Shown here: piece after piece, positions 23,636 through 40,364 of the stretch
Numbering within the stretch: position 1 is the stretch's first letter
Layout: every line of letters starts with the position of its first letter
Origin: Candidatus Iainarchaeum sp.
Lineage (GTDB): Archaea > B1Sed10-29 > WALL01
DNA length: 42,807 nucleotides
Direction: 5' to 3'
Assembly: GCA_021162685.1 (NCBI GenBank)
Contig: JAGGYF010000031.1
Coordinates: forward strand, 1-42,807
Program-made: the position numbers and the translations under genes
Notes under the pieces: generated by a model
What the model saw: the letters and a program-made list of their open reading frames with translations, nothing else
What the model was told of the DNA's origin: nothing
Databases searched by the model: none

Positions 23636-23708
23636 TGGGCTTGGGCGGGTTCGAACCGCCGATCTCTGCCTTGTAAGGGCAGCGTCATAACCACTAGACC
23701 ACAAGCCC
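23636..23708 (-). tRNA. tRNA-Val(TAC)
   Basis: GGGCTTG acceptor stem, D-arm TAGTGG, anticodon arm CTGCC-CT-TAC-AA-GGCAG, GGCGG-TTCGAAC-CCGCC T-arm; CCA not encoded. Confidence 0.97.
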
Positions 23709-35397: not shown

Positions 35398-35472
35398 AGC
35401 GGGGTGGAGCAGCTAGGAGTGCTCGTCGGGCTCATAACCCGAAGGTCGTTGGTTCAAATCCAACCCCCGCTA
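35398..35472 (+). tRNA. Initiator tRNA-Met(CAT)
   Basis: AGCGGGG...CCCCGCT-A with A1:U72; anticodon stem TCGGG-CT-CAT-AA-CCCGA with three G:C pairs; TTCAAATC T-loop. Confidence 0.97.
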
Positions 35473-36031: not shown

Positions 36032-36195
36032 ATTCTATACCTCTTAGTCTGTTGTGTTATTATGAATTGTTCTTTGATATTGAAATAATATATGTCAAAT
36101 CAAATATTAATATTGAACACTGTTCAGTCATCATTTAATATTTATAATATCATCGTTTTTATAACTTCATGTTTAATTTCATGCATTCCTTTTCA

Positions 36196-36993: not shown

Positions 36994-37749
36994 ATGAAAA
37001 AGGTAGCAGTTGTATTCAAAAAGGAGTTCCCACGCTCAATGAAAGAGAAGATACAGAAGGAGATAAAAAGAGCAGGATTTAGTATATCAAAAGATTTTGA
37101 TTTTGTTATTGTTTTTGGCGGGGATGGCACAATATTTGAGACAGAGATGTCAAAAGCCAGAGGAAAGCCAATATTAGCGCTAAATGCAGGAGATCTGGGC
37201 TTTTTAACACAAGGAGAAGCAACAGATATAAGGAAAGTACTCTCAGCTGTGAAGAAAAACGATTTCTTCATAGAGGAGAGGGCCAAGCTCTACCTCTCTG
37301 TAAACCACAAAAAACAGGCAGAAGCCCTAAATGATATATATATAACAAGCGCGATACCTGGGAAAGCGATAAGGGTTGAGGTAGGAGTAGACACAAAGAA
37401 CATCTGCTCCTTGATATGTGATGGAGTTCTTGTCTCAACACCAACTGGGTCAACAGGATATAATATATCAGCAGGGGGCAGCATTATAGAGCCGCGATGT
37501 AAGGTTATAAGTATAACCCCAGTAAACCCCCATATCTCCTCTATAAAACCCATAGTAATAGATGATGAGCATGAGATACAGATAAGGGCAAAACAGAACA
37601 CTAAAATAGTAGGAGTAATAGATGGTATAAAAGAGGTGCAGATAAAACCAAATGCACTAATAACCATAAAGAAGTCTAAGAATACAGCAAAATTCATAAA
37701 AATAGGGAAAACGACATATTTTGATAAGATCAACAAATACTTTACCTAG
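36994..37749 (+). CDS. nadK: NAD(+) kinase
   Basis: GGDGT, GDLGFL, ALND, DGVLVSTPTGSTGYNISAGG and IDG motifs. Confidence 0.95.
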   Translation: MKKVAVVFKKEFPRSMKEKIQKEIKRAGFSISKDFDFVIVFGGDGTIFETEMSKARGKPILALNAGDLGFLTQGEATDIRKVLSAVKKNDFFIEERAKLYLSVNHKKQAEALNDIYITSAIPGKAIRVEVGVDTKNICSLICDGVLVSTPTGSTGYNISAGGSIIEPRCKVISITPVNPHISSIKPIVIDDEHEIQIRAKQNTKIVGVIDGIKEVQIKPNALITIKKSKNTAKFIKIGKTTYFDKINKYFT

Positions 37750-38089
37750 TCCTACCAAGAAGGCTTCGTGATGTTCTTCTCATCGTTCCCATAGCCGGCT
37801 TTCTGTATCCTCTTCTTTCTGCTTCTATCTCTCCTTCTTCTGGCATCACATTCTTTCCTTTTCCTACAATAATGATATCCCCAACAGCAACAACATTCCT
37901 ATACAAAACACTCTTTTCTCTGAGGACTTCTTTTGCCTTCTCCTTTGAGATTGATCTCAGAGGTTCTGTTGTCAGACGCACGATCTTTCCTGTTTCAAGG
38001 TTTAGTATTATGTCATTTACTTTTCCAATATACCTTGCATCATCATTGTATATGTCCATGCCATAGAGCTCTGATATATACATTGCCAT
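37742..38089 (-). CDS. PRC-barrel domain protein (family of archaeal CdpB cell-division proteins)
   Basis: ISELYGMDIY..DARYIGKVNDIILN...V.AVGDIIIV pattern; basic C-terminal tail. Confidence 0.88.
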   Translation of the reverse strand: MAMYISELYGMDIYNDDARYIGKVNDIILNLETGKIVRLTTEPLRSISKEKAKEVLREKSVLYRNVVAVGDIIIVGKGKNVMPEEGEIEAERRGYRKPAMGTMRRTSRSLLGRTR

Positions 38090-38858: not shown

Positions 38859-39548
38859 CTACATAGCAATGATCTGGTATTTTGTTCGTCTCCCTTTCTT
38901 AATACTCCTCACATATCCTGCTTCTTGCAATGCCTTCAACCTCTCCCATATATACTGCCTTGTATAACCCACTCTATCAACAAGCTCCAATGTGCTTAGT
39001 TCCTCTTTAGCAAGCGCATCCAATATCTTCTTATCTGCTTCTAATAATTCAATTGTTTGTTCTACATGTGTCAACTCCGTAATATCTTGTGTCAGTTGAC
39101 GTGTCGTATTGTCAATTTGACGTGTCAACTCTGCTTTTCGCTCCTCCAGTTCCCTTATCCTATCATTGATATCCACAATCCCTGACAAGATCCTATCCTC
39201 CTTGACTATGTCTTCATTTATTAATGCCTTTATATCCTCTAAATCGTGCTTTTTGGCCATATCTTCCCCAATAACGTCCAATTTTTCGTTTATAGACCTA
39301 TATAACTCCTCTAACTTGCTTATTCTGTCTTGGATTGTTAGTAGAGGATGTTCAACAGCAGGCGAGTAAACCCTCTGTTCTGGAGCATTTAACGATTCTA
39401 ATGCAATTGTTTGCTCTTTAATTCCAGAAATAAGCTCCTTTTTTTTATTCACCTGTATTTCTTCCTCTTTTCTGTGTTTTAAAGGCTCTTCTTCATTTTT
39501 CTTTTCTTCGCTTCTCTTCTTCTTAAGCAGCCATGACAAGAAACCCAT
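38859..39548 (-). CDS. Protein with amphipathic N-terminus, long coiled coil and C-terminal winged helix
   Basis: N-terminus MGFLSWLLKKK; heptad-rich middle; ArsR-like wHTH ILDALAKEELSTLELVDRVGYTRQYIWERLKALQEAGYVRSIKKGRRTKY. Confidence 0.85.
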   Translation of the reverse strand: MGFLSWLLKKKRSEEKKNEEEPLKHRKEEEIQVNKKKELISGIKEQTIALESLNAPEQRVYSPAVEHPLLTIQDRISKLEELYRSINEKLDVIGEDMAKKHDLEDIKALINEDIVKEDRILSGIVDINDRIRELEERKAELTRQIDNTTRQLTQDITELTHVEQTIELLEADKKILDALAKEELSTLELVDRVGYTRQYIWERLKALQEAGYVRSIKKGRRTKYQIIAM

Positions 39549-39556
39549 GTGTATAT

Positions 39557-39615
39557 TATGTCAGTTGACATATTTAATCATTTAGTTTACGTAACCTTAC
39601 ATGTCAACTGACGTA
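39557..39615. promoter_or_regulatory. Palindromic operator/centromere-like cluster upstream of the coiled-coil wHTH gene
   Basis: TATGTCAGTTGACATA (39557-39572), GTAACCTTAC (39591-39600) and GTCAACTGAC (39603-39612). Confidence 0.7.
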
Positions 39616-39640
39616 TTTATTATTACATCAAATATAATAA

Positions 39641-39946
39641 GAACTCTCACTTTTAATGTTTTTGGGCCATTTTTACATTTTCTACCCTCTTCTCTCACTT
39701 TTTTGGTATGCTCCCTCACTTCTCTCACTTTTCCTGTATGTGAATACCGGAAGTAAACCCCTTGGTTAGAACTCTCACTTTTTCTATTTCCCCAAGGAAC
39801 TCTCACTTTTTAGGCCTTTATTTTCTATCTCCCCTTGCTTACTCTCTCCTTTTTAATGTTTGATGTATGGATCTCTCACTTTTTTGTGATGGCCTGTGGC
39901 ATGTTTAGTGGTAGGGATCTCGTTGCCGAGAACTCTCACTTTTTTT
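39641..39946 (+). repeat. Array of co-oriented CTCTCACTTTT direct repeats (iteron-like)
   Basis: Exact 11-mers start at 39644, 39692, 39722, 39772, 39800, 39873 and 39933, with variants at ~39711 and ~39842. Four copies extend to GAACTCTCACTTTT. Confidence 0.9.
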
Positions 39947-40094
39947 AGGTAGGAGAAGAGCCCCAAAAACGTATAACCAAATAATCCTTTTATAAAATAT
40001 ATAATATAATATACATCTTATATAAGACATTTCTGAAAGAAACCTTTATAAATATCCTTTTACAAAGTATATAACAAAAAACAATGGTGGGTGT

Positions 40095-40364
40095 ATGGAG
40101 CCTGAATTTTTTATAAGAACAAAGCCAGTAAGGGCATTAGTTGCCTTATCTGACAAAAATAGGGAATGGTACGCACATTTATTGGCAAAGGAGATAGATT
40201 GTACCTATGCACATCTAATAAAGCTTTTAGATACCATGGCTGAAGCAAACATAGTAATATTTGAGAGAGAGGGAAGGATAAAGAAGGTAAAACTGACAGA
40301 ATTTGGAGAAGAGTTAGCACATGATTTTGAGACAGTTTTGAGGAGATTAGAAAAGATAAAATAG
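40095..40364 (+). CDS. Small MarR-like winged-helix protein
   Basis: LAKEIDCTYAHLIKLLD..ANIV.FEREGRIKKVKLTEFG wHTH pattern; GGTGG RBS. Confidence 0.88.
   Translation: MEPEFFIRTKPVRALVALSDKNREWYAHLLAKEIDCTYAHLIKLLDTMAEANIVIFEREGRIKKVKLTEFGEELAHDFETVLRRLEKIK

Follow-up and report, generated by a model that had tools for sequence, protein, structure and literature searches.

Here we describe a candidate replication origin of non-canonical plan in Candidatus Iainarchaeum sp. (GenBank assembly GCA_021162685.1), located in the 42,807-nucleotide contig JAGGYF010000031.1. This stretch, analysed over its whole length and hereafter called the window, is the entire contig C32 of a DPANN-type archaeal genome of 1.11 Mb in 45 contigs, 98.4% complete. 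In the window, seven exact and two variant copies of a short box stand in one array, followed by an extremely AT-rich tract and by the gene of an 89-amino-acid (aa) winged helix-turn-helix (wHTH) protein, termed wHTH89. Box array, AT tract and wHTH89 gene are one module, which is found phylum-wide and beyond and is single-copy per genome. We tentatively interpret the array and the tract as the chromosomal replication origin, or an origin control region, with a probability of about 40%. Our literature searches returned no described replication origin for these tiny DPANN archaea, most of which are uncultivated. An earlier note, made from the letters of the window, had proposed that the array is either an origin with a lineage-specific box or a high-occupancy platform for the wHTH protein encoded next to it; as readings of a dedicated, conserved module both survive here, and neither is proven.

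The box array and the AT-rich tract

The array occupies a 546-bp gap (39549-40094) that separates the gene at 38859-39548 (minus strand) from the wHTH89 gene at 40095-40364 (plus strand). Open reading frames (ORFs) were defined throughout by a longest-ORF rule rather than by a gene finder, and under this crude mask only one ORF-free gap of the 1.11-Mb assembly is longer. The module comprises the following features.

39641..39654, plus strand: Box 1 (GAACTCTCACTTTT; 11-mer search)
39689..39702, plus strand: Box 2 (exact 11-mer core; 11-mer search)
39710..39723, plus strand: variant box with core CTCCCTCACTT, which shares five bases with box 3
39719..39732, plus strand: Box 3 (exact core; 11-mer search)
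39769..39782, plus strand: Box 4 (GAACTCTCACTTTT; 11-mer search)
39797..39810, plus strand: Box 5 (GAACTCTCACTTTT; 11-mer search)
39839..39852, plus strand: variant box (core CTCTCTCCTTT)
39870..39883, plus strand: Box 6 (GATCTCTCACTTTT; 11-mer search)
39930..39943, plus strand: Box 7, gene-proximal, with its core starting 162 nt before the ATG (11-mer search)
39960..40080, no strand: extreme AT-rich tract of 121 bp with a G+C of 0.207, candidate unwinding element and/or promoter region
40095..40364, plus strand: wHTH89, 89-aa AF1382-like winged-helix protein (ORF, profile and structure model)

The exact 11-mer CTCTCACTTTT starts at 39644, 39692, 39722, 39772, 39800, 39873 and 39933 on the plus strand. 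Together with the two variants, these copies make nine boxes co-oriented inside 300 bp, with start-to-start spacings of 48, 21, 9, 50, 28, 42, 31 and 60. GAA precedes four of the exact copies and GAT one. The 11-mer search thus confirmed the seven exact and two variant co-oriented copies named in the earlier note, whose spacings (48, 30, 50, 28, about 43, about 30 and 60) agree with the measured positions. On both strands of the window, a search for CTCTCACTTTT with at most one mismatch returned solely the seven array copies, against an expectation of 1.42; none of 100 shuffles reached seven. The genome-wide count that the same note had suggested gave ten exact copies, seven of them in the array. 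The remaining three lie within ORFs, so that no regulon is visible. Among the 9-mer repeat clusters of the genome, the array ranks first, ahead of the array of clustered regularly interspaced short palindromic repeats (CRISPR) at the start of contig C26. In the latter (C26:1-500), a repeat of about 37 nt occurs six times or more.

No second iteron-like non-coding region was found in this genome, nor in the relative G015, which is assembled in two contigs. The other iteron-like gaps of this genome turned out to be the CRISPR array, coding repeats, or GC-rich repeats that appear by eye to be tRNA-related. A separate set of three tandem 32-bp repeats at the very end of contig C33 (C33:35863-35960) may belong to an array that continues past the assembly break. 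An RNA gene at the array was rejected, as Rfam gave no match in 39400-40200 at E values up to 1; at the gathering score, the entire window has two tRNAs only, at 23636-23708 (minus strand) and 35398-35472 (plus strand). A mobile element was likewise rejected: the genes of the window are housekeeping genes (purine synthesis, SRP54/FtsY, ribosomal proteins, a Toprim-domain protein and NurA/HerA), and the synteny of the array is kept within the order. Four DNA sequencing runs yielded short low-depth contigs identical to the window, without joints or length variants.

The very AT-rich stretch that the earlier note had placed at about 39960-40080 is real: its G+C of 0.207 falls in the lowest 0.025% of 55,431 121-bp windows of the genome, and it ranks within the top three 120-bp places by A+T content genome-wide. 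Such a tract is also retained in relatives. Within 700 bp of the array, a 120-bp window falls in the lowest 0.2% of the contig in seven of nine relatives, and at 0.2% and 3.2% in the other two. The tract persists even in the relative contig G002:C13, which has 56% G+C compared with about 38% here. As an observation in its own right, G002 belongs to the same family as the window genome, so that composition has moved strongly inside one family. Of the six 120-bp places that are richest in A+T genome-wide, three, at 36057, 39965 and 42552, fall in the last 7 kb of the window.

Conservation of the module

The relatives used for comparison are draft assemblies and are kin to one another. Homologs of wHTH89 are present in 28 of 41 relatives and in 24 of the 31 genomes of the phylum, including all 11 that are at least 90% complete. 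Sequence comparison upstream of these genes revealed that the array of the window has counterparts in relatives, as the earlier note had proposed to check. At least one exact copy of CTCTCACTTTT occurs at most 700 nt upstream of the wHTH89 gene and on the same strand in 15 of 20 loci, and the core CTCACTTT in 18 of 20, with 71 copies. A looser box pattern, again matched in 18 of the 20 loci, finds 75 boxes, all of them on the strand of the wHTH89 gene. A second set comprised 22 loci, and several of these overlap loci of the first set; boxes were found in 16 and reverse boxes in none. The 75 copies give the consensus (G/T)(A/T)(A/T)CTCTCACTTTT(T), without dyad. Their spacings cluster at 27-29, 35-39, 48-51, 56-61 and 72-84 bp. 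The distance from the core of the last box to the ATG is kept in 7 of the 20 loci of relatives, six of which have 162 nt and one 160 nt.

Another word was seen in the array gap of the relatives L150 and L154, where GTAGTGTAAGA (GTAGTGCCTAAAA in L154) is present in three to four copies. Words of this type are also found in the present genome, at C26:21412 and C26:21612, both within the long gap C26:21081-21623, and at C17:2756. They may be the site of another factor.

The winged-helix protein wHTH89

A profile built from 20 wHTH89 homologs matched the PDB entry 2qvo, AF1382 of Archaeoglobus fulgidus, at E 3.3e-11 over 83 of 94 positions. The next matches in the PDB are SlyA/MarR proteins, followed weakly by AspA of pNOB8 (E 0.0055-0.027) and TubR (E 0.6). 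The AlphaFold (AF2) model of wHTH89 has a predicted local distance difference test score of 89.7, and Foldseek aligned it to AF1382 with template modelling (TM) scores of 0.85-0.90. After AF1382 came chains of the MarR family, SSV1 F-93 and AspA chains (TM 0.73-0.75). In a Pfam search of wHTH89, no family attained the cut-off and no Rep-family match appeared; the source records annotate the homologs as 'MarR family' or 'hypothetical'. Profile and predicted fold place wHTH89 among the MarR-like or AF1382-like minimal winged-helix proteins with a C-terminal helix.

Between the last box and the ATG stand three further sequence elements, among them a candidate transcription factor B recognition element (BRE).

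39989..40013, plus strand: AT element (TTTATAAAATATATAATATAATATA; by eye)
40040..40054, plus strand: BRE/TATA-like element (AAACCTTTATAAATA) with a putative promoter role, about 50 nt upstream of the ATG
40086-40093: GGTG-rich word before the ATG

In relatives, AAATAT-type elements seem, by eye, to recur about 25-30 nt past the last box, and words resembling AAACCTTTATAAATA stand at the same place.

These elements bear on another explanation of the module, in which wHTH89 would cooperatively bind its own upstream boxes and control its own promoter, and perhaps the divergent promoter too. The array would then be a self-contained regulatory or architectural platform with no role in replication, and the AT tract a strong promoter pair with a leader. 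The array indeed travels with the wHTH89 gene on the same strand whatever the divergent neighbour may be, a 229-aa wHTH gene, a PRC-barrel gene or an AAA+ ATPase gene. Moreover, the distance of 160-162 nt between the last box and the ATG is fixed in 7 of 20 loci, and the last box precedes the recurring AT element by about 25-30 nt, with the BRE/TATA-like word near -50. A MarR-like minimal winged helix would suit such a regulator, genes of other regulators in the same gaps have repeat arrays of their own, and the skew evidence presented below is non-significant overall. However, seven to nine boxes at 130-430 nt upstream of the presumed promoter far exceed what an archaeal autoregulator would need. 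With no second genomic target, wHTH89 would regulate itself alone, yet all 11 high-quality genomes of the phylum retain it. Further points against the platform are the tract, which is among the most AT-rich places of entire contigs in seven of nine relatives, and the strongest skew switch at no more than 3 kb in three contigs. Given both sides, we consider a self-contained platform less likely than an origin.

The place of orc1/cdc6 and a proposed origin model

The only Cdc6_C match of the genome lies on contig C27, where cdc6 spans C27:19613-20818; the absence of cdc6 from the window, reported in the earlier note, is thereby borne out. The gaps flanking cdc6 are 85 and 95 bp in this genome, and its upstream gap is 59-142 bp in seven contigs of relatives from this phylum. 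Gaps of only 59-142 bp argue that the origin is not beside cdc6. In 11 relatives that carry both on one contig, cdc6 is 11-75 kb from the array, and in 10 of the 11 it lies downstream of wHTH89; these 11 share synteny and are not independent. Three observations were made around cdc6 itself (C27:19155-20818 in this genome). It is divergently paired with a conserved gene of 116-123 aa, whose N-terminus looks by eye like archaeal SepF. A large ORF of about 880-895 aa is found near cdc6 in relatives, and the ORF at C27:17044-18360 of this genome holds a stretch resembling an intein or homing-endonuclease block.

Origin recognition boxes (ORBs) were sought across the genome with five ORB-like 12-letter words and up to two mismatches. 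This weak test returned scattered matches and no intergenic cluster. Within that limit, no ORB-bearing origin elsewhere was found that would displace the array from the role suggested for it in the earlier note. As stated in parts of a review, ORBs differ among genera in number, orientation, sequence and spacing (PMC5333045). Passages of one DPANN paper describe a standard skew with an origin beside cdc6, in a different lineage (PMC5905446).

With cdc6 lacking intergenic room for an origin, the phylum-wide single-copy module is the best available handle on how these chromosomes replicate or are organised. A protein that is kept in all good genomes, and whose only sites form an oriented array next to some of the most meltable DNA, points to a chromosome landmark rather than to an ordinary regulator. 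Among the landmarks, an origin fits the anatomy best, and an origin must exist somewhere in the chromosome. Skew coincidences in three to five genomes further favour a replication landmark.

We propose a putative model of origin function, which starts from what is observed, namely the anatomy of the array, its uniqueness in the genome, its conservation, its strict orientation and the lack of room beside cdc6. Initially, the seven to nine co-oriented 14-bp boxes would be cooperatively occupied by a sequence-specific protein. The likeliest binder is wHTH89, encoded directly downstream, and the last box would then serve to regulate its promoter. Once assembled, the array of protein and DNA would stress the adjacent 120-bp tract, which is among the most easily melted of the genome. 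Finally, Orc1/Cdc6, encoded elsewhere, would load MCM at the AT tract. The identity of the binder, the unwinding and the initiation are steps that we infer within this model.

If the array is an origin, it would represent an archaeal origin uncoupled from orc1/cdc6 and built of non-ORB direct repeats, and would offer a sequence landmark for estimating growth rates from metagenomes. A terminus barrier or a centromere, two alternatives considered below, would add a landmark of a new kind to archaeal chromosomes. Under each of these readings, the boxes provide a testable DNA target for the uncharacterised AF1382 protein family.

Skew, operon direction and alternative landmarks

Several observations weigh against an origin at the array, some from its anatomy and others from strand asymmetry and the direction of operons. 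As to anatomy, the array is not adjacent to orc1/cdc6, and the consensus of the 75 copies is unlike the canonical ORB; the earlier note had already seen this mismatch in the window. All boxes stand on the same side of the AT tract, without inverted copies. Plain promoter control would account equally well for the fixed distance between the last box and the gene. Binding of the boxes by wHTH89 is suggested by their strict linkage and is not proven. Distant homologs of wHTH89 (37-39% identity; L159-L161) keep the recognition-helix motif and carry, instead of CTCAC boxes, three TTATACATAA repeats, which stand between a PRC-barrel gene (by eye) and the wHTH gene. The replacement of the box despite the kept recognition helix indicates that box and protein do not simply co-vary. 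For comparison, passages of the review cited above describe known archaeal origins as an AT-rich element that boxes flank (PMC5333045).

The cumulative GC skew has its maximum near the array in five of the first nine contigs of relatives, at 1.0 kb in G015, 2.2 kb in G002, 3.8 kb in G019, 10.7 kb in G040 and 11.6 kb in G020. It does not in G007, G016, G035 and G038, and in G035 the skew minimum lies at cdc6 rather than at the array. Where a switch does coincide with the array, it is a cumulative maximum, that is, of the terminus type under standard polarity. Parts of a study on haloarchaea report an inverted polarity, with origins at maxima (PMC1868953). One region that distorts the skew curves is G019:C1:115000-165000, where 50 kb show a one-strand AT skew of 0.45-0.59 with A-rich coding strands, probably belonging to giant genes.

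We then controlled for coding strand by comparing the GC skew at third codon positions (GC3) between ORFs directed toward and away from the array. ORFs toward the array are G-richer on both arms in G002 (p ~1e-6 for each arm) and G015 (significant), and on one arm in G020, G040 and G019. The sign is opposite on one arm in G007, G035 and G038; by arm, it is opposite downstream in G003, G006, G009 and G035 and upstream in G007, G021 and G038. Of the five contigs added to the first nine (G003, G006, G009, G017 and G021), G017 shows no significant strand-controlled GC3 skew. When the GC3 skew was followed in sliding windows of +-30 kb along 12 contigs, G002, G015 and G020 had their strongest positive switch at a distance of 1-3 kb from the array; combined by rank over the 12 contigs, the test gave a Fisher p of 0.12. 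ORFs within 10 kb of the array, pooled over 22 loci, showed no skew difference. Contigs C32 (the window) and C27 (cdc6) are without strand skew, though other contigs of the genome have it. Thus, of the skew inflection that the earlier note had proposed to look for at the array, a switch within 3 kb in 3 of 12 contigs is what stands; the polarity of the maxima, the non-conserved arms, the non-significant pooled tests and the flat skew of its own contig do not support it.

Operon directions, which do not depend on skew, pull the same way as the skew polarity and its inconsistency, away from an origin. The 16S rRNA gene is transcribed toward the array in G040 and G015; for G015, the direction was reasoned from coordinates and holds for either joining of its two contigs. 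The L2 and L14 operons and rpoB are transcribed toward the array in G015, G019 and G020, three genomes that share synteny. Such operons would meet forks from an origin at the array head-on. Summed over nine contigs, 367 ORFs on the cdc6 side point toward the array and 244 away, compared with 218 toward and 233 away on the other side. Co-orientation of genes with replication is weaker in archaea than in bacteria.

These asymmetries may instead speak for a replication terminus. In that case, boxes tightly bound by wHTH89 would stop replication forks in a polar manner, and the gene of the terminator protein would lie beside its own sites and be autoregulated, as with Tus-TerB and RTP-Ter. The barrier would fix the terminus and shield the long co-oriented block of RNA-polymerase and ribosomal-protein operons on one arm from head-on replication, and it would be the first Ter system of archaea. 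The coincident skew switches are cumulative maxima, ORFs toward the array are G-rich on both arms in G002 and G015, and the 16S rRNA, rpoB and ribosomal-protein operons aim at the array, together with the surplus of inward ORFs on the cdc6 side. The single orientation of the boxes is what a polar barrier requires, and in four of five contigs the switch lies slightly upstream of the array in gene orientation. Yet the polarity of one arm is opposite in G003, G006, G009, G035, G007, G021 and G038, the pooled tests are non-significant, and no opposed set of sites exists. The cdc6 gene at 11-75 kb, with the ORFs of about 880-895 aa beside it, makes a neighbourhood that is more usual near origins. 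No fork trap is known in archaea, and an extreme AT tract is not known to have a role in Ter systems. Taken together, a polar barrier and the terminus it would fix are very unlikely in our judgement.

A centromere-like site was considered as a further landmark, at which the repeats would nucleate a segregation complex comparable to TubR-tubC, ParR-parC or AspA of pNOB8, with the product of the 229-aa gene or the AAA+ ATPase as a possible partner. Direct iterons upstream of the adaptor's own gene are the layout of type II and III plasmid centromeres, and wHTH89 is weakly similar to AspA (E 0.0055-0.027; TM 0.73-0.75) and TubR (E 0.6). There is one locus per genome, PRC-barrel genes are nearby, and sepF-like genes (by eye) stand beside cdc6. 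Against this, the genes that neighbour the array in the window include no ParA, ParM or TubZ family member, and the extreme AT tract is not a known centromere feature. The likeness to AspA and TubR reflects the general MarR-like fold, for which many MarR regulators score higher. A segregation site is accordingly improbable, and the origin remains the reading that we prefer.

Neighbouring genes

On the other side of the array, the following features were found.

38859..39548, minus strand: cc_wHTH229, divergent 229-aa gene with a basic N-terminus, a long coiled coil and a C-terminal winged helix (ORF and Pfam)
39560..39612, no strand: inverted repeat with two perfectly matching 12-bp arms (39560-39571 and 39601-39612) around an AT-rich spacer of 29 bp (read in the sequence)

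The claim of the earlier note that wHTH genes diverge on both sides of the gap holds: cc_wHTH229 matches Pfam HTH_24 at residues 170-214 (E 1.3e-7), and its counterpart is the AF1382 match of wHTH89 at E 3.3e-11. The inverted repeat, situated between the 229-aa gene and the first box, is likely the operator or promoter region of the 229-aa gene. At the N-terminus of the protein is a short hydrophobic-basic stretch; a long charged coiled coil comes next and the winged helix last, and this layout reads like that of a tether from DNA to membrane or from DNA to a scaffold. A search of the ESM Atlas gave generic MarR/TrmB-like leads only, below 0.9. Within the same order, 9 of 10 loci have a homolog of cc_wHTH229 bordering the array, and the synteny runs from the 229-aa gene through the array and wHTH89 to genes of 156, 118 and 122 aa. 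The 118-aa neighbour belongs to the AF_0843 family, of unknown function, according to the ESM Atlas. A PRC-barrel gene lies near the array at 37742-38089, and likewise nearby in several relatives.

In six genomes from three other families, the divergent gene at the array instead encodes an AAA_22 ATPase of 370-505 aa with a C-terminal winged helix. This gene is preceded by a dense array of its own with a 10-12-bp period, of TACYCG, TTACTC or ACACG type (L157:9170-9375, L153, L151, L152 and L149), upstream of the wHTH89 homolog and at the place that corresponds to 39549-39640 of the window. In L157, ten forward TACYCG words follow one another at 9-13 bp, with one step of 22 bp, and two more are inverted; in L149, ten ACACG words are mostly 10-12 bp apart. 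A few inverted copies of the words adjoin the ATPase gene. The combination of AAA_22 and winged helix is initiator-like in architecture, a point in favour of an origin. Its best NCBIfam match is an ExeA-like ATPase, and its single-sequence AF2 model, with a predicted local distance difference test score of 41.6, is too poor for use. An assignment as an Orc1/Cdc6 paralog was rejected, given that its alignment to Cdc6 of this genome is limited to the Walker A region and that a six-member profile reaches PDB Cdc6 at E 0.19, behind NB-ARC and RuvB-like chains. BLASTP found no similarity between cc_wHTH229 and the AAA+ wHTH gene product, and the idea that the former is a remnant of the latter was dropped.

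Comparison with known systems

Tus-TerB and RTP-Ter share with the module oriented sites beside the gene of the binder; RTP is a winged-helix protein, and the array is at a skew maximum in some relatives. They differ in having two opposed groups of sites, compared with one cluster in one orientation here, where the skew polarity is not conserved. The centromeres of TubR-tubC, ParR-parC and AspA are similar in their direct repeats upstream of the gene for a small DNA-binding adaptor. However, their repeats are contiguous at 11-12 bp, whereas the boxes of the array are spaced at 28-60 bp, with no motor NTPase gene nearby and with an AT tract present. Iteron origins of theta plasmids show the same order of direct repeats, AT-rich tract and winged-helix gene. 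Unlike them, the array stands among chromosomal housekeeping genes with no plasmid or virus genes nearby, and its protein has one small winged helix rather than the two of Rep.

The closest relative of the protein among known structures, AF1382 (PDB 2qvo, 3o3k and 3ov8), is itself uncharacterised; it resembles wHTH89 in its full-length profile match and fold, and the titles of its PDB entries name neither a function nor a DNA site.

Archaeal oriC regions with ORB or mini-ORB elements resemble the module in having repeated short boxes by an extreme AT tract, a long intergenic gap, one locus per genome and an adjacent winged-helix gene, with orc1/cdc6 at 11-75 kb from the array in relatives. The module departs from them in a box that differs from the canonical ORB, in boxes that are co-oriented and one-sided, in a cdc6 gene that is not adjacent, and in skew and operons that are not consistently supportive. 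A second comparison is with the Sulfolobus origin oriC3 and its protein WhiP, which is much larger than wHTH89 and Cdt1-related, whereas wHTH89 is a single 89-aa MarR-like domain related to AF1382. The likeness lies in the locus, since both are of origin type and have as neighbour a gene for a winged-helix protein that is not Orc1/Cdc6. The Sulfolobus work describes oriC3 as specified by WhiP, a winged-helix initiator other than Orc1/Cdc6 (PMC3607249).

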